From: Candidatus Latescibacterota bacterium
GTDB taxonomy: Bacteria; Latescibacterota; UBA2968; UBA8231
Assembly (NCBI GenBank): GCA_965197905.1
Contig: CBDAOB010000003.1
Coordinates: forward strand, 544,001 to 608,000
Direction of reading: 5' to 3'
Length of the DNA stretch: 64,000 nt
Shown here piece after piece: positions 40,208-47,296 of this stretch (within the stretch, counting starts at the first letter, position 1; every line of letters begins with the position of its first letter). The position numbers and the translations under genes were made by a program. The notes beneath the pieces are model-generated. The model made no database searches. It saw only the letters and a program-made list of their open reading frames with translations, and was not told the DNA's origin.

Positions 40208-41463
40208 ACTCGAGCGCAAAAGTAAAGAGCGTTGAACGTTTCCTGGTGCAGATCCCCATCATCGATCGCGTGCGGCGGGAGATGGAACGGGCCGACATCC
40301 ACACCTGGTCCGAGCTGGAAATGACCCGGGTGGAAACCGACGGGGGCATCGTCGGCTGGGGTGAAACGGTGCAGAACTACACCTGGGGACGGGTGAGCGA
40401 AGAAGAGCGCGCCATCGGGCGCCCGCCGGCGGAGCTGATGTGGGACGATTCTCTCGGAGCCGGTCTGCAGATGGCGCTCCTGGATGCAGCGGGCAAACTG
40501 GCCGGCGTCCCGGTCTACCGGCTGCTGGGCGCCAAGTGCCGTGACTGGTGCGCCATATCCTTCTGGGATCATGACATGTCCCCTGAACTTTATGCCAGGG
40601 AAGCAGTGGAGTCGGTGAACCTGGGCTACACCTGCATGAAGATCAAGACACGTCCGTGGCACGATGTGCGGGAGACCATCCGACAGATCAGCGACGCTAC
40701 CCCCGACCACTTCCACATCGACGCAGACTGGAACGGATTCCTCAACAACGCCTCCAACGCAGTGCCAGTGCTCAGGGAGCTGGAGCAGGCGTTTCCCAAG
40801 ATCAAGATCTTCGAGGACCCGATTCCGCGGAACGATGCCCCCGGGAATCGTTTCTTGCGCACCCAGATCGAAAGCGCCATCGCTCATCACTACGGGTCCA
40901 TTCCGGCGCGCACGGGGCTGGAAATGGGTGGCGTGTGCGATGGGTGGGTCATCGGCGGCGGGGTGTCCCGGATCACCCGCGACGCCCACGTAGCAGCGGA
41001 GGCCAACATGCCGTTTTTCCTACAGATGGTGGGTGCCGGCCCCACCACCACCCTATCGCTGCATTTGAGCGCGGTTCTCACCCATGCCCAATGGCCCACC
41101 GTCACCTGCCACGAGCTCTACGAACACAGCCTGCTGACCTCGCGCATTCCGGTGGTGGGCGGGCACGCTCGCGTGCCGGAGGGACCGGGCCTCGGTATCG
41201 AGATCGACGAAGCTGCGCTGGACCGCTATCGGGTTGAAGAGGCGGATCATTCCCTGCCCCACCGCCTGATCAAGCTGACCCGACCCGGAGGCGTCAACCT
41301 GTACTTTGCGACCCAACGCCAGATGTGGGAGTTCTTCGAGCTCGGCAACCAGCCGGTGGACGACTGGGGCTGCATCACGGAGCTGCTGGACGACGATGGC
41401 AGCGCCGAGTTCGACGACCTGCACCGGCGCGCTCCGGAATCGCCGGTCCTCGTCGGCCCCTGA
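40204..41463 (+). CDS. Mandelate racemase/muconate lactonizing (enolase superfamily) enzyme
   Basis: ATGA overlap with the upstream gene; GWGET, ALLDAAGK, KIK, DAD, FEDP, VPEGPGLGIEID. Confidence 0.88.
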   Translation: MNSSAKVKSVERFLVQIPIIDRVRREMERADIHTWSELEMTRVETDGGIVGWGETVQNYTWGRVSEEERAIGRPPAELMWDDSLGAGLQMALLDAAGKLAGVPVYRLLGAKCRDWCAISFWDHDMSPELYAREAVESVNLGYTCMKIKTRPWHDVRETIRQISDATPDHFHIDADWNGFLNNASNAVPVLRELEQAFPKIKIFEDPIPRNDAPGNRFLRTQIESAIAHHYGSIPARTGLEMGGVCDGWVIGGGVSRITRDAHVAAEANMPFFLQMVGAGPTTTLSLHLSAVLTHAQWPTVTCHELYEHSLLTSRIPVVGGHARVPEGPGLGIEIDEAALDRYRVEEADHSLPHRLIKLTRPGGVNLYFATQRQMWEFFELGNQPVDDWGCITELLDDDGSAEFDDLHRRAPESPVLVGP

Positions 41464-41542
41464 GCGATTGCGGTCGCAGGGTACTCACCCTATCATCAAT
41501 TGTGCGTGTCCTTTTCCAGCCCGACGTCGATTTCGAGAGATC

Positions 41543-42442
41543 ATGAGCGCTAGCGATCGAAAACCGGTCATCGCCCCCTGCCCCGAGCAGCTCGAGCAGT
41601 CAGACATCGACCAATTTTACCAGCAGGGCTATCTGGCTTTCCAAGAGGTGTTGAGTCGGGAAGAAGTAGACGAAGCCAGAGAGGCCGTGAGTGGCATTAC
41701 CAGAGATCTGTTGAGGCGCGCCCACTCTGGTCAAACCCAGATCGAAGACGCTAGCAAGGTCGCGACGCAGAACTACTCTGGCATCCAAGTCGTGGATCCG
41801 GACAGCGGATTTGGTATCTACTTCGAAGAGGGAGTCGACCCCCTAGCATTGTCGCCTGAAGAGGCGGAAACGAAGTACCGCAAACTGTCGGGTTACCACC
41901 AGGAGCATCCGGCACTGGTCGCCCTCGTCAAGCACCGTCGAATCAAGGGATTCGTCGAACAGCTTCTAGGTGAAGAATCGGTGATGCAGGCGGACATGGC
42001 GCTGTGCAAACCGCCGTTTATAGGTTCGGAAAAACCGTGGCATCAGGACAATGCCTACTTCAACTTCCTGCCCTTGGAAAAGCGGGCTACAGCCTGGGTG
42101 GCCTTGGACGACGCGACGATCGAAAACGGCTGTATGCACATGCTGCCCGGCAGCTACACACCGTTGCGGCACCACCACACGACCGACTGTGAGATTGTTG
42201 CGGACCGGATCGACAAATCGCAGGCGGTTCCGGTGGAGCTCCGCGCCGGAGGGGTGATCTACTTCACGGCAATGATTCCGCACCAGACCCCTCCCAACCG
42301 AACCCCTCATCGGCGGCGGGCTCTGCAGTTTCAGTTTCGCGGGATCAGCACAAGGGAGGTTTCCAGGCAGGAGTTCGGCAAGGTGTTCGCCGAAGCGGAC
42401 GGCTCCCCCGCCACCTGCGCCCTGGCCCGCGAGAACGGCTGA
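41543..42442 (+). CDS. Phytanoyl-CoA dioxygenase family oxygenase
   Basis: KPPFIGSEKPWHQD, WVALDDATIENGC, PHQTPPN. Confidence 0.92.
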   Translation: MSASDRKPVIAPCPEQLEQSDIDQFYQQGYLAFQEVLSREEVDEAREAVSGITRDLLRRAHSGQTQIEDASKVATQNYSGIQVVDPDSGFGIYFEEGVDPLALSPEEAETKYRKLSGYHQEHPALVALVKHRRIKGFVEQLLGEESVMQADMALCKPPFIGSEKPWHQDNAYFNFLPLEKRATAWVALDDATIENGCMHMLPGSYTPLRHHHTTDCEIVADRIDKSQAVPVELRAGGVIYFTAMIPHQTPPNRTPHRRRALQFQFRGISTREVSRQEFGKVFAEADGSPATCALARENG

Positions 42443-42444
42443 GC

Positions 42445-43341
42445 TCAGTCGTTCTCGGTCTTCACCTCCGTCAGCGCTTCCCGATCCTCTTGCTTCCACT
42501 TTTCCCAACGACCTTGGTCGGGTTCCTGAAAACCGCTGTTGGCACGTGCCTGCAGATGGTCGTCCGCGCCCAGTAGCCGCAGAGCCCGATGGTCCTTGCG
42601 CTCGCGGGCCCAGTGAATCAGCTGGCGGCAGTTGGGTCCGTCGAAGGTGTCGGTCTGTTTGAGCCAGGTGAGATTGTAATAGACGCTGAAGAAGAACCGG
42701 CGCTTGCCCGAGGTGTTGGGCGTGCCGGCGTGCAGCAGGCGGTTGTGGGTCAGCACCACGTCTCCCGCCTTCATATATACCACCAGCTCGTCCGGATGCG
42801 GTCGCATCTTCATTTCCTCTGGCACTTCCACCGGGTTGATGTGCGAGCCCGGAATCATCCGCAGAGGACCGTAATCGTCGGTGAGATCCTGGAGGTAGCA
42901 GATGGCGTTCATGGAGAGCGGACGCTCGTACTGACCGGTTGCCATGCCCCCCCAGCGGTCGCGATGCCAGTGGGAGGTTCGGCCCTCCGCCTCCTCTTTG
43001 GGCACCGAGGGAAAGGCGGCCAGGGTCAAGTTGTCCAGCTGCACGAACGGACCTACGACCTCCTCGGCGAAATCCAGGATGAGCGGATTGCTCAGCGCCG
43101 GCCACATGAGCGACGGCGACCGTTCCAGCATGTTTCCGAACCACCAGCTCAGCTTCTGCGCGTGAATCCCCGTCGAGGACTCCTCCAGTCGCAGCGCCTC
43201 CCTGCGCCAGCCCTGCATCTGCCCTTCGCTGTACACCCCTTCGAAGATGGTGTAGCCGTTTTTCTTGTATTCCTGCAGACGGGCGCTGTCGCCGGAGCCG
43301 GCGTTGTTCTCGACCGTGCACTTGGTAGCGGTGCTTGACAT
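42445..43341 (-). CDS. Phytanoyl-CoA dioxygenase family oxygenase
   Basis: WHRD, YLQDLT, IPGSH, LLHAGTPN. Confidence 0.9.
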   Translation of the reverse strand: MSSTATKCTVENNAGSGDSARLQEYKKNGYTIFEGVYSEGQMQGWRREALRLEESSTGIHAQKLSWWFGNMLERSPSLMWPALSNPLILDFAEEVVGPFVQLDNLTLAAFPSVPKEEAEGRTSHWHRDRWGGMATGQYERPLSMNAICYLQDLTDDYGPLRMIPGSHINPVEVPEEMKMRPHPDELVVYMKAGDVVLTHNRLLHAGTPNTSGKRRFFFSVYYNLTWLKQTDTFDGPNCRQLIHWARERKDHRALRLLGADDHLQARANSGFQEPDQGRWEKWKQEDREALTEVKTEND

Positions 43342-43353
43342 TGCGGGTCGAAC

Positions 43354-44223
43354 CTACGCCTTGTCGCTCTCCACCAGATTTCCAGCAACATGTACCGGTC
43401 GGTACAAGGTCTGCCTCTTGGGAGGCATCGCCGCAACCAGCTCGGGAGGTGGATCCCAGTCGTGCCACTTGCTGTTTACCGTGTTGTAGCAGCTGAAGAT
43501 GGCGATCCGGGGCCGATCGGCATCGATCCAGGGCCGCGCGCTGTGCGTGAGCGCCTCTGTGAACAGGATCAGCGAACCCTCAGGACAGGTGTAGGAGTCC
43601 CAGATCGGTGAATCGGGCGACCACACCGCCTCCGGGGCCGGATAAACCGCTTTGTGACTCCCGGTTATCAACAGGGTGCCATTGCCCTCCGTCACGGGAT
43701 TCAACTCCCACACAACCCGGGTCAGCCCGGAGTTTGCTTTTCCGGGTATGCAGCGATACAGATGCGAATCCCCCGGTAACCGAAACATGCCGTTGCCGTT
43801 GTGCGGTTGGAAGTTGCCGTCGCCGACTTCGCGGTAGAATACCTTGGCCGACTCCTGACGAAAGCCATAACATTCCTGGCTGGAGAGCCCGGGGTAAGCG
43901 ACGAACTCGTTCATGAAGCCGACCACAATCGGATGATCCGTCAACTCTTGCAACGGTCCGGCAATGGCGCAGCGCTCGTGTTCGGGCAACGATTCGGGAT
44001 CGTGGTGCAGCTGCTCGCCGAAGGCTCTCATGTCCGCGCACTCGGAGGCCGACAAGACTCCCGGTAGCAGCAGCCAGCCGCGCATGTCGAAGAGATACTT
44101 CTGCTCTTCGCTTGGAGCTACGGCGGGAATCCCGGCGGAATTGGTCTTCGGAAGGTCTGCATCCTCCTCATTCCACCTTGCACCGAGATTTTTGTCGATT
44201 ACGAAAGCTTGGCTAGTAGGCAT
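43354..44223 (-). CDS. PhyH-like Fe/2OG enzyme with HxG motif
   Basis: QKYLFDMRGWL, PHNG, VVWEL, ITGSHK, FTEALTH. Confidence 0.85.
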   Translation of the reverse strand: MPTSQAFVIDKNLGARWNEEDADLPKTNSAGIPAVAPSEEQKYLFDMRGWLLLPGVLSASECADMRAFGEQLHHDPESLPEHERCAIAGPLQELTDHPIVVGFMNEFVAYPGLSSQECYGFRQESAKVFYREVGDGNFQPHNGNGMFRLPGDSHLYRCIPGKANSGLTRVVWELNPVTEGNGTLLITGSHKAVYPAPEAVWSPDSPIWDSYTCPEGSLILFTEALTHSARPWIDADRPRIAIFSCYNTVNSKWHDWDPPPELVAAMPPKRQTLYRPVHVAGNLVESDKA

Positions 44224-44241: not shown

Positions 44242-44508
44242 TCATGCGTTTTGGCGCAGGTGCGCCCGCATTTTTTGCACCAGTGTCTCGTCGTCCGGAG
44301 ACGACAACACCATCTCGAAAAAATCGTCTGACGGAATCCCCACTTCCTCCAGGAAGCGCTGGTCAGCCCCTCACGGAAAGACGTACTCGCCGATGCGGCC
44401 TGCTTTGATGGCTCGAACCTTGTCGGCGATACGCGCCAGCCATGGGATGTCGCCGGTCACCAGGCCACGGGCACGCGGTCTGAAATCCAGGCTGTTCGAT
44501 TCGTTCAT
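44242..44508 (-). CDS. DUF5069-like small protein with in-frame TGA at codon 46; candidate selenoprotein (88 aa)
   Basis: GAGGAG RBS. Reads MNESNSLDFRPRARGLVTGDIPWLARIADKVRAIKAGRIGEYVFP-(TGA)-GADQRFLEEVGIPSDDFFEMVLSSPDDETLVQKMRAHLRQNA, with family-like sequence on both sides of the TGA. Confidence 0.85.
44328..44366 (-). promoter_or_regulatory. Putative bacterial SECIS element
   Basis: After the UGA: GGGG CUGAC CAG CGCUUCC UGGA GGAAGUG GGGAUUCC GUCAG. This gives a 7-bp upper stem, a G-containing tetraloop 19 nt after the UGA, and a 5-bp lower stem. Confidence 0.75.
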
Positions 44509-44509
44509 G

Positions 44510-45610
44510 TTATTTCTCCTCGTCAAGTCCGGCTAGCGCCGCAATGGATCTCCTGAATCCGGTGCACAGCGGATCGTCGCTGAGCGGTCTGGCGACCGCT
44601 TCGGTCAGTTGCCGCAGCCGCCACCGGGGCCGACGCCAAACAGCGAGCAGGGCCCGATTGGCGGGTTTGTCCGGATTGTCCAGAGCAGCGGCAAGCATGG
44701 CGAACGCGTTGAGATTAAAGTGGAGGTGGTGGCCGTCCAATGCCAGCGCCCTTCCGCAGCGGTCGTCGGGATTCCTGGCGGCGTAGAAACCGGCAGATTC
44801 GCGCGTAATCAATCCCACAAACTGACCCTCGTCGTACCCCGCGCCCAGGCTCGTTCCGTACTGCACCAGTCTGCGTTCCGGCCAATCCCAACCGATTTTG
44901 GCGAACTCGATGAAACAGGGCCGGTGTGTGTTTTCCTCAACGACGATATTCCGGGCGTTGTAGTCCATACACCCCAGGGTTGGGAGACGCGAGCCAAGCC
45001 GCTCGTTGATGGCGCGCAAGAGATCGATCAGATGCCGGATCTCTGCTCCGGTCGCACCCAACCGTCGTGCGAGATTGTCCACACCTTCTTCAGCGCCCAG
45101 CAACGACCCCCCATCCCTCGATGTCAGCTGGCGGCGTGTTCCCGCCGGGGATGTCAGGGGGATGAGCTCTCTGCGCCGTGCGGCAAAAGCAGACTCGATC
45201 TCACAGAAACCATCGATGACGGATCTATTCAGTTCCGCGCTCGCGGCCGGAATAGTCTGACAGAGATCGTCGATGGTCGACCGGCCGCGGTGCTCGAAAA
45301 AGATGAATCGGGTATCCGGAACTGTGCCCAACACGCGCGGCACCGGGCAGTTCGCCGCCGCGAGCAGTTCCAGCACCTTTTCTTCCACCGCCAGCAGGTC
45401 GTCGGGTGGACCGGCGCAATCTGCAAACACCTGGTGCTTGGCGACCACCCGTTCGCCACCCACCATCTCCACGTCCCAGACTCCAGCTGAGATTTCGGCG
45501 ATTCGAGCTACGGCCGGCGTCTCCGGAAAACAGGCTGGAACCCGAACTCGCAAGTAACCCTCGACGGAGCTCGGCGTTATCCGAGGTTCGGTATGTGGAA
45601 GGCAGTTCAC
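44510..45610 (-). CDS. Aminoglycoside phosphotransferase/kinase-like protein
   Basis: VVAK, E..VL..L, PVPRVL, MDYNARN (Brenner-like), FIEFAKIGWD. Confidence 0.7.
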   Translation of the reverse strand: MNCLPHTEPRITPSSVEGYLRVRVPACFPETPAVARIAEISAGVWDVEMVGGERVVAKHQVFADCAGPPDDLLAVEEKVLELLAAANCPVPRVLGTVPDTRFIFFEHRGRSTIDDLCQTIPAASAELNRSVIDGFCEIESAFAARRRELIPLTSPAGTRRQLTSRDGGSLLGAEEGVDNLARRLGATGAEIRHLIDLLRAINERLGSRLPTLGCMDYNARNIVVEENTHRPCFIEFAKIGWDWPERRLVQYGTSLGAGYDEGQFVGLITRESAGFYAARNPDDRCGRALALDGHHLHFNLNAFAMLAAALDNPDKPANRALLAVWRRPRWRLRQLTEAVARPLSDDPLCTGFRRSIAALAGLDEEK

Positions 45611-45981
45611 GGATCGTCGAAAAGGATAACGTGGGAGGTGAGCTTTCCAGCCTGATTGTTGTAGAGTGGATTTTCGTTCATGGCCAGGTGGAGAACTCCT
45701 TCCTGTTCCGATATGAAATCATGGCGGCTGCCGACCGCGAACACCGGATAGTCGCCGATGCGGGCGATCAGAGCGCCCACATTGGTTCCCGGTAAGAGAT
45801 ACTCGGCCCCGGCAGTGTGGTTGTATACGCCGTCTGCCCCGCACCAGACGATCTGATTGCGCATGTCCGGTGACCAGACTTCCTCGGTGTCGATCACGAC
45901 CCGCTGTCCTGCACGGATGCGGATCAAGGTGTCCTGCCATTCCGGACTCGGTCGCACGGTGCGAGCAATGGTAACTGCCAC
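45607..45981 (-). CDS. Small beta-sandwich protein, LecA/PA-IL-like
   Basis: WQDT.I.I.AGQRV, GALIARIG..PVFAVG, GVLHLAMNE...NNQAG; no signal peptide. Confidence 0.7.
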   Translation of the reverse strand: MAVTIARTVRPSPEWQDTLIRIRAGQRVVIDTEEVWSPDMRNQIVWCGADGVYNHTAGAEYLLPGTNVGALIARIGDYPVFAVGSRHDFISEQEGVLHLAMNENPLYNNQAGKLTSHVILFDDP

Positions 45982-46104: not shown

Positions 46105-47139
46105 CTAAACGAACTGGTCGTCCGAATCGCCGCGGACGATTGTAACCTGGCCCTGTTCCTCCAACTGCCGTACTTGCTGCACGATGCGCAGCTGCACCTC
46201 TTCCACTTCGCTCAACCGCATCGGGCCCTGAAACTCCATCTCCTCGGTGATGAAGGTGCGAACCCGTTCCGACATGTTTCCCAACACCTTGTCCTTCAGT
46301 TCGTCGTCGGCACTCTTGAGCGCCACCACCAGGTCTTTCTGATCGACCTCTCGCAGCAAGGTCTGAATTTCCCGGTCTGTGAGCTTCACGATATCGGCGA
46401 ACACGAACATCAGATTTCGGACCGCCTCTGCGATCTCAGGATCTTGGGCATCCATCTGGTCCAGCACGCTCTTTTCCACGCTGGAACCGGTAAGGTTGAG
46501 GATATCGGCCACCACCTTGGGACCACCCACGTCCTGATCTCCGCCCAACATGTCGCGCAGGGACTGCTCCAGGGCTTCCTCGATCTCTTTGATCACGTTG
46601 GGGGTGATGTTCTCCATCGTCGCCAGTCGGTAGGCCACATCCGCCTGCAAGCGCTCTGGAAGCTGGGCCAGGATTCCTGCCGCCTGCGCCGAATCCAGCT
46701 GCGAGAGAATAAGCGAGATCGTCTGGGGATGCTCGTTCGAAATGAAGGGAGCGATCTGGTCGGCGGCGACGTTCTTGAGGATATAGAAACCGGAGGACAC
46801 CTTGCTCCCCACCCGTTCCATAATCTCCTGGGCACGCCGCGGTCCCACGGCGCGTTCCAGCGCCGCCCGCCCGAAATCTATACCTCCCTGCGCAATCCAC
46901 TCGCCGGCCATAAGGTGCTGCTCGAATTCCTCCAGCACCCGGTCGATTACTTCGGTCCCGATATTTTTCAGTGCCGCAATGGCCCCGGTAATCTCCTCGA
47001 TCTCGAAATCGCTGAGGTGTTTCATCACCTCACCGGAGACCTCCTCGCCCAGAGCAACCATGACGATTCCAACCTTCTGTCGTACTGGGAGTTCAGGCTC
47101 ATCGTCCTCTCCCTGTTGATCGACATCTGCTTCTGCCAT
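46105..47139 (-). CDS. fliG: Flagellar motor switch protein FliG (isolated)
   Basis: QGGIDF, EHPQTISLILS, GGPKVVADILN, MFVFAD, NMSERV, GPMRLSEVEEVQ. Confidence 0.95.
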   Translation of the reverse strand: MAEADVDQQGEDDEPELPVRQKVGIVMVALGEEVSGEVMKHLSDFEIEEITGAIAALKNIGTEVIDRVLEEFEQHLMAGEWIAQGGIDFGRAALERAVGPRRAQEIMERVGSKVSSGFYILKNVAADQIAPFISNEHPQTISLILSQLDSAQAAGILAQLPERLQADVAYRLATMENITPNVIKEIEEALEQSLRDMLGGDQDVGGPKVVADILNLTGSSVEKSVLDQMDAQDPEIAEAVRNLMFVFADIVKLTDREIQTLLREVDQKDLVVALKSADDELKDKVLGNMSERVRTFITEEMEFQGPMRLSEVEEVQLRIVQQVRQLEEQGQVTIVRGDSDDQFV

Positions 47140-47296
47140 AACCTTCGATCCTTGGTATCTGATCAACCTCGGTCACACGAGACATTCCAGGTTGATCGCA
47201 TTCATCAATATCGGGTTCTATTGTACTAAACTTCAACCAAAAATTCTATACGTATTTGGATAGGACGATTTCTACTCGAGAGAAAGGGACCGAAAA

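Follow-up and report, generated by a model that had tools for sequence, protein, structure and literature searches.

Between two minus-strand genes of the window (the whole stretch of DNA analysed, 64,000 nucleotides from a Candidatus Latescibacterota bacterium) lies a gap in which an earlier note had proposed an overlooked selenoprotein gene. The locus raises the question whether the one internal TGA of the frame in this gap is read as selenocysteine (Sec), and what a Sec residue might do in DUF5069, a domain of unknown function. The features discussed below are:

44242..44508, minus strand: short-form DUF5069 gene, 88 codons, Sec predicted at codon 46
44516..44521, minus strand: ribosome-binding site GAGGAG, 7 nt ahead of the ATG, within the last codons of the kinase gene
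44371..44373, minus strand: in-frame TGA, predicted selenocysteine 46, at the start of model helix 47-56
44341..44358, minus strand: SECIS stem-loop CGCUUCC-UGGA-GGAAGUG, 7-bp stem, loop UGGA at 44348-44351
44328..44366, minus strand: possible lower stem CUGAC/GUCAG (44362-44366 with 44328-44332), can form here, outside the SECIS
44510..45610, minus strand: APH/choline-kinase-fold phosphotransferase, 366 aa, translationally coupled upstream gene, proposed partner
45607..45981, minus strand: 124-aa protein that matches no known family; in this class its presence and absence largely follow those of the DUF5069 and kinase genes
43354..44223, minus strand: PhyH-family dioxygenase, directly downstream, outside the proposed module

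A short-form DUF5069 frame with one internal TGA

The frame runs from an ATG at 44506-44508 to a TGA stop at 44242-44244. It fills the intergenic gap, since the stop codon of the kinase gene (44510-44512) precedes its ATG by 1 nt and its own end lies 18 nt short of the ATG of the downstream gene at 44223. The coordinates thus bear out the earlier description of an 88-codon frame with a GAGGAG ribosome-binding site and one TGA filling the gap; most of the DUF5069 orthologues listed have a purine-rich ribosome-binding site as well. The single internal TGA, codon 46, stands in the context GEYVFP-U-GADQRFL. A base-calling error at this codon is unlikely, because a contig from a public sequencing run, possibly of the source sample, spans 44308-45700 with zero differing letters and a genome of the same genus with 97% identity has TGA there too. 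Neither TGC, TGT nor TGG was found at codon 46 in this covering contig. No RNA run was among the sequencing runs listed as containing the locus.

The read-through product matched the Pfam family DUF5069 (PF16798) with 52.2 bits against a cut-off of 27. The family assignment of the earlier note therefore held, but not for a whole domain: the match covers only positions 4-79 of the 133 profile positions, and we refer to the protein as a short form. No NCBIfam 20.0 model came near its cut-off. The structure model (pLDDT 80) is nearly all helical and matches PDB 3OMD with Z 9.9, rmsd 2.3 A over 76 residues and TM 0.71 by query, while the next match has Z 4.7 and nothing else stood out in the fold search. 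3OMD is also the only clear sequence match (E 2.6e-8), and its Cys aligns with Sec46. In the model Sec46 is placed just ahead of helix 47-56. The helix at 24-35 carries the invariant residues Arg26, Asp29, Lys30 and Arg32 (R-x-x-D-K-x-R-A), which are conserved throughout the wider family. No thioredoxin chain was among the fold matches listed, a motif of the type UxxC, CxxU or UxxT/S is replaced here by U-x-A-D, and the short form has no second Cys.

Sec machinery, orthologues and the predicted SECIS hairpin

The genome holds selA, selB, selD and a tRNA-Sec gene (selC, anticodon UCA), all parts of the machinery on which the earlier proposal depended. selD has an in-frame TGA of its own, and the selD element (loop GGUC, 17 nt, -9.0) is near the DUF5069 hairpin in geometry. 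Further Sec candidates are plentiful, comprising one SelW-like gene, AhpC/TSA matches, of which 8 of 15 have an in-frame TGA in UxxC-like motifs, and three DUF3179 genes; judged from its genes, the genome carries a large selenoproteome. The three DUF3179 genes stand in tandem (G000:C4:1987225-1989122), each with a TGA in AVAY-U-P and a downstream hairpin. As an aside on the tRNA complement, ARAGORN finds no tRNA gene on one contig of 1.2 Mb (G000:C3) and 53 on the other four.

For the comparison of codon 46 among orthologues we collected 129 loci, one source supplying the best 80 of 245 confirmed stretches, and after duplicates were dropped 94 distinct coding sequences remained. The closest relatives with a name bear the label Candidatus Latescibacterota. 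The column contains TGA in 79 of these, TGC in 10 and TGT in 5, with no TGG or other codon, and the frame past the TGA is open and conserved for at least 40 codons across the orthologues. Metagenome loci (67 distinct from the best 80 of 137) gave 37 TGA, 29 Cys and 1 that is cut off at the site. In a survey of 140 genomes of the phylum the DUF5069 gene was found in 105, 92 of them with one TGA. Among 41 related genomes, those with the TGA form possess selB in 27 of 27 and selA in 26 of 27 cases. Three of the seven genomes with the Cys form have neither selA nor selB and four have both, so that Sec is dispensable at this site; the three orthologue-bearing genomes without selA or selB all have Cys.

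Sec and Cys have exchanged repeatedly. A tree of 81 columns with column 46 masked (90 rows, including 6 Cys proteins added to the set; rows more than 90% alike or too short left out) requires 6 Sec/Cys changes, 5 of them forced by starred branches, and as it is unrooted it does not separate gain from loss. One locus identical to a Poribacteria-labelled protein (L143) has TGA and the same hairpin. Another (L216) carries TGA in a clade that elsewhere has Cys and in which the named members bear the labels Chloroflexota or Actinomycetota; here a kinase gene is followed by the TGA form with a different hairpin of loop GGC (L216:1878-3250). This one long-branched row suggests an independent gain of Sec. 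All 92 of 92 short database proteins end one residue before the Sec column, from which it follows that gene callers have truncated the family. A Planctomycetota-labelled entry (P0147), seen as protein only, likewise ends just before the column.

The hairpin starts 12 nt past the UGA and places its loop UGGA 19 nt after it, with a folding energy of -8.0 kcal/mol and a pair probability of about 0.6. This agrees with the earlier account of a hairpin 12 nt 3' of the UGA with a G early in a small apical loop. In a custom scan (not bSECISearch) with a loop of 3-9 nt, G in its first two places, a stem of 4-16 bp, a spacing of 16-37 nt and at most -7.5 kcal/mol, it falls within all these limits, with loop UGGA, 7 bp, 19 nt and -8.0. 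We rejected folding energy as evidence for a SECIS element, as it is no better than that of shuffled sequences (z between -0.12 and -1.15 in each of four segments). Of 4000 random genomic TGAs 255 passed the generic scan at -7.5 or lower, and in many orthologues the uninterrupted stem reaches only -4 to -7. The exact spacing and loop together with at least six pairs occur at 4 of the 181,814 TGAs of the genome, codon 46 among these.

It is conservation that lifts the hairpin above chance. A UGGA stem-loop with five core pairs is present in 78 of 79 TGA genes versus 0 of 15 Cys genes, and TGGA occupies the loop position in 79 of 79 TGA genes. In the metagenome set the core hairpin was found in 31 of 35 measurable TGA genes (2 TGA loci and the cut-off locus being too short to count) versus 1 of 29 Cys genes. 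Homologues that combine TGA with a conserved hairpin, on which the earlier proposal also depended, are thus common in both sets. Where the hairpin overlaps the reading frame, the choice among synonymous codons is frozen: 79 of 79 genes use CTG for Leu53 compared to 40 of 79 for the equally invariant Leu24, and 77 of 79 use TTC for Phe52 compared to 42 of 79 for Phe9. Stem pair 15:28 is C-G in 54 of 79 and G-C in 25 of 79 genes, which reflects few events rather than 25 as the rows are related. The extension of the stem by CUGAC/GUCAG, part of the hairpin in the earlier note, forms in this gene, but all five pairs are present in only 8 of 78 TGA genes, and we rejected it as part of the SECIS.

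These observations also bear on the reading in which the TGA truly ends translation or is decoded as Trp or Cys, leaving a 45-residue peptide, a pseudogene or an alternative genetic code. Gene callers do give 45-residue products, the half before the TGA scores 23.3 bits on DUF5069 by itself, and one database entry (P0002, seen as protein only) carries Trp in the column of Sec46, which may be how a gene caller translated TGA. Set against this are the open and conserved frame past the TGA, its alternation with TGC and TGT only, and the hairpin tied to TGA. A general reassignment of TGA does not apply, because TGA is the commonest stop in this genome, ending 637 of 1299 long ORFs; with this use and 0 of 94 TGG at the column, the genome does not belong to the TGA-reassigned codes (tables 4 and 25). 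We regard this alternative as very improbable. The DUF5069 gene almost certainly encodes an 88-residue selenoprotein with Sec at codon 46, as judged from the machinery, the 79 of 94 TGA codons, the TGA-tied hairpin and the exchange of Sec and Cys. The four findings named beforehand as fatal to this proposal (missing Sec machinery, a column other than Cys, no homologue with TGA and hairpin, reads with a sense codon) were looked for and none refuted it.

The kinase and other neighbouring genes

The gene directly upstream encodes a predicted kinase with the invariant Lys, the helix-C Glu and the catalytic-loop Asp and Asn in 23 of 23 rows compared. At the position of the DFG Asp there is Glu in 16 Latescibacterota-type rows and Asp in 7 rows from other clades. 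The solved structures closest to it in fold are those of small-molecule phosphotransferases; the identity is 11-17%, too low for their substrates to be transferred to this protein. Among loci with at least 400 nt of upstream sequence (13 with less were dropped), 57 of 79 from genomes and 26 of 68 from metagenomes have the kinase gene immediately ahead of DUF5069 in the same orientation, and stop and start of the two genes often overlap or nearly touch. This adjacency was found in three distant clades, namely family f1, the Chloroflexota/Actinomycetota-labelled clade and one further clade. Fusions of the two proteins, with DUF5069 at the C-terminus, make up 5 of 9 members of one protein cluster and 2 of 2 of another, and could have arisen just by loss of a stop codon. 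In the remaining 22 of the 79 genome loci and 42 of the 68 metagenome loci, among them every Poribacteria-type locus inspected, the kinase gene does not adjoin DUF5069; an unlinked kinase was sought within Latescibacterota, where the two genes are separate in families f2-f4.

Presence and absence of the two genes go together. In 116 genomes of the class both are present in 103, neither in 8 and one only in 5, these five all being fragmented drafts of 150-780 contigs, and 24 genomes from other classes of the phylum have neither the kinase nor the short form. Four of the eight double-absent genomes (G030, G065, G066, G090) belong to families in which the genes lie far apart, and a single deletion can therefore not explain their common absence. 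Nothing of the pair was found at the syntenic positions of G011, G065 and G066. The eight genomes are not simply depleted, as a control gene of unknown function is present in 6 of 8, although this is one useful control among related, non-independent genomes; a second control gene (7 of 22 genomes) was too patchy to inform. When a kinase and a DUF5069 protein that naturally has Cys were modelled as a complex, the score of 0.01 gave no answer. Taking adjacency, fusion and co-loss together, the DUF5069 protein and the kinase quite probably form one module.

Several gene orders around the pair were recorded in passing. Four loci (L163, L169, L170, L173) show the order kinase, DUF5069, Nif3-like, in some with a TIGR03936 gene upstream. 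In L228, L231, L232 and L233 (families f2/f4) UbiA-family and DUF362 genes come before the kinase, and in L224, L225, L229 and L230 (f2/f4) an NMT1/THI5-type ABC transporter comes after the 124-aa gene, with ThiT near the DUF5069 slot. Thiamine kinase of E. coli has the APH fold, and a thiamine link was considered and found not supported across clades.

The 124-aa gene is missing from 7 of the 8 double-absent genomes and from 2 others, and its product is a possible third member of the module in this class. It had no match among Pfam families and PDB sequences; it may resemble LecA-type beta domains. In one genome the gene has an in-frame TGA (G026:C441:1583-1948).

The PhyH gene was rejected as a module member, being a neighbour only in this genus; it is one of three adjacent PhyH-family dioxygenase genes (window 41306-44223) directly downstream of the selenoprotein gene. 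In many f1 relatives an FNR-like gene lies downstream of DUF5069. We rejected it as a dedicated reductase, since it occurs in 5 of 22 genomes, was not found in this genome (G000) and is present in the module-less G011. Upstream of the module lies a full-length fliG (TIGR00207, 347 bits; window 46105-47166, minus strand), with no other flagellar gene beside it among the ORFs scanned in 32815-56879. From viral contigs, 0 of 8 candidate stretches were confirmed.

The Sec column, its possible role and known systems

The column aligned with Sec46 is Cys in 15 of the 94 orthologues, in 3OMD and, across the wider family, in 107 of the 154 domain rows filled at this position, in agreement with the earlier note; 34 of 34 Cys short forms chosen by hand have it as well. 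The remaining domain rows have Ser (30) or other residues such as Gly and Asn (17). Ser, Cys, Asn and Gly are ordinary residues of helix N-caps. Within this genome a triple-repeat paralogue (G000:C5:2615512-2616762) has Ser at the column, and a single full-length paralogue (G000:C4:121657-122043) has Cys. The fold can therefore function without a thiol, given the 47 of 154 rows with other residues and the Ser of the triple-repeat paralogue, and the redox or catalytic role that the earlier note assigned to residue 46 is one we infer, as the column is Ser in 30 rows. The short form retains Cys or Sec throughout, and a cell that pays for Sec at codon 46 argues for chemistry at that atom. A second Sec form, the triple-repeat DUF5069 of G002 (L043:3172-4491, minus strand), was rejected, as its TGA falls on a Gly position and points to a nonsense or assembly error. 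Elsewhere DUF5069 is appended to methyltransferase, cupin, DUF2249 and metallo-beta-lactamase domains.

The explanation we prefer combines a Sec-containing short-form DUF5069 protein, a kinase module and a role as single nucleophile, and we give it a probability of roughly 0.6 as a whole. SelB would bind the UGGA stem-loop 19 nt downstream and bring Sec-tRNA to codon 46 by the standard bacterial mechanism. The product would correspond to the helical N-terminal half of the DUF5069 domain and present a single reactive chalcogen, Sec or Cys, where a helix begins, preceded by the invariant R-x-x-D-K-x-R-A helix, and in this class the 124-aa protein would probably join it and the kinase. Given Sec and the kinase module, there is about an even chance that the selenolate acts as single nucleophile on an anionic small molecule. 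It would attack, reduce or carry a compound that the kinase makes or uses, with Arg and Lys residues of a putative pocket holding the anion beside Sec46. An improbable variant has Sec46 itself taking a phosphoryl group, held by Arg26, Lys30 and Arg32, as the phosphatase or phospho-relay counterpart of the kinase. If true, this would place a selenoprotein in phosphoryl-transfer chemistry via a selenium-phosphate intermediate, outside the redox roles of nearly all catalogued families, with selenium recruited to the site at least twice with different SECIS hairpins.

Two other accounts accept the selenoprotein and differ in what they make of the kinase. The protein could be a stand-alone single-selenol redox protein that reduces peroxides or disulfides, with glutaredoxin/thioredoxin reductase or an FNR-type flavoprotein regenerating it; the kinase would then be no more than an old operon neighbour. 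A redox role is ascribed to most catalogued selenoproteins (PMC13188914), and Sec thiol oxidoreductases are numerous in this genome (the AhpC/TSA matches above). Family f1 has two different FNR-type genes in the downstream position, and a glutaredoxin-thioredoxin reductase fusion lies directly upstream of a Poribacteria-type Sec gene (L148:1750-2976, L149:1753-2976). Yet a thioredoxin-type motif and a second Cys are both absent, the FNR-like gene does not track the DUF5069 gene, and the kinase and DUF5069 genes are missing together even in families where they are unlinked, and are fused twice. We consider this account unlikely. Somewhat less likely again is that the Sec protein regulates the kinase as a redox or metal sensor, or accepts a phosphoryl group on Sec/Cys46, instead of being a small-molecule enzyme. 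Translational coupling, the C-terminal position in the fusions, the small size, the invariant Arg26, Lys30 and Arg32 and the attachment of DUF5069 to varied domains, as of a portable regulatory domain, would suit such a role, but the nearest solved folds of the kinase are small-molecule phosphotransferases and the two genes are separate in families f2-f4.

Table 1 of PMC13188914, which lists 119 selenoprotein families, has no row for DUF5069 or PF16798, in line with the earlier remark that this is not an established selenoprotein family; the families of Haft and Tolstoy 2025 appear in the same table. The name and motifs did not occur in four supplements of the deep-Sep study (PMC12013277), and a literature search for DUF5069, PF16798, IPR031849 and pfam16798 found no paper. 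We take IPR031849 to be the InterPro accession of DUF5069. The family is apparently uncatalogued as a selenoprotein family; the candidate lists of Deng et al. 2026 could contain it.

The recoding mechanism itself is ordinary, and what the locus would add to the bacterial selenoproteins is an apparently non-thioredoxin, mainly helical family of unknown function. It occurs in most genomes of a Latescibacterota class and in Poribacteria-type sequences, and public protein sets end it at the UGA. Sec singles out one residue, the first to test, in an unstudied domain with a solved structure. The link to the kinase offers a first testable context for DUF5069, and the natural Cys forms and the fusions would ease an assay.

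The prototype of a bSECIS selenoprotein gene is fdhF of E. coli. Bacterial SelB-dependent selenoprotein genes carry the bSECIS just past the UGA, for which a consensus model is given in PMC13188914. The DUF5069 gene resembles them in having a UGA opposite Cys, a stem-loop inside the coding sequence, a G at loop position 2 and selA, selB, selC and selD in the genome. It differs from them in that it lacks a UxxC or CxxU motif and apparently a thioredoxin fold, and in that its proposed partner is a kinase. That partner shares the fold and the invariant Lys, Glu, Asp and Asn of APH/ChoK kinases (PF01636; e.g. corramycin phosphotransferase 8AGY, YtaA 2Q83), and differs from the solved members by the low identity given above and, in Latescibacterota, by the Glu at the position of the DFG Asp. 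Its gene is present in single copy and vertically kept, which sets it apart from a mobile resistance gene. With 3OMD, an uncharacterised protein from Leptospirillum rubarum, the short form has in common the fold and the Cys aligned with Sec46. It differs from this structure and from DUF5069 in general by its short length (80-97 residues, without about 50 C-terminal profile positions), by Sec in place of Cys and by its link to a kinase.
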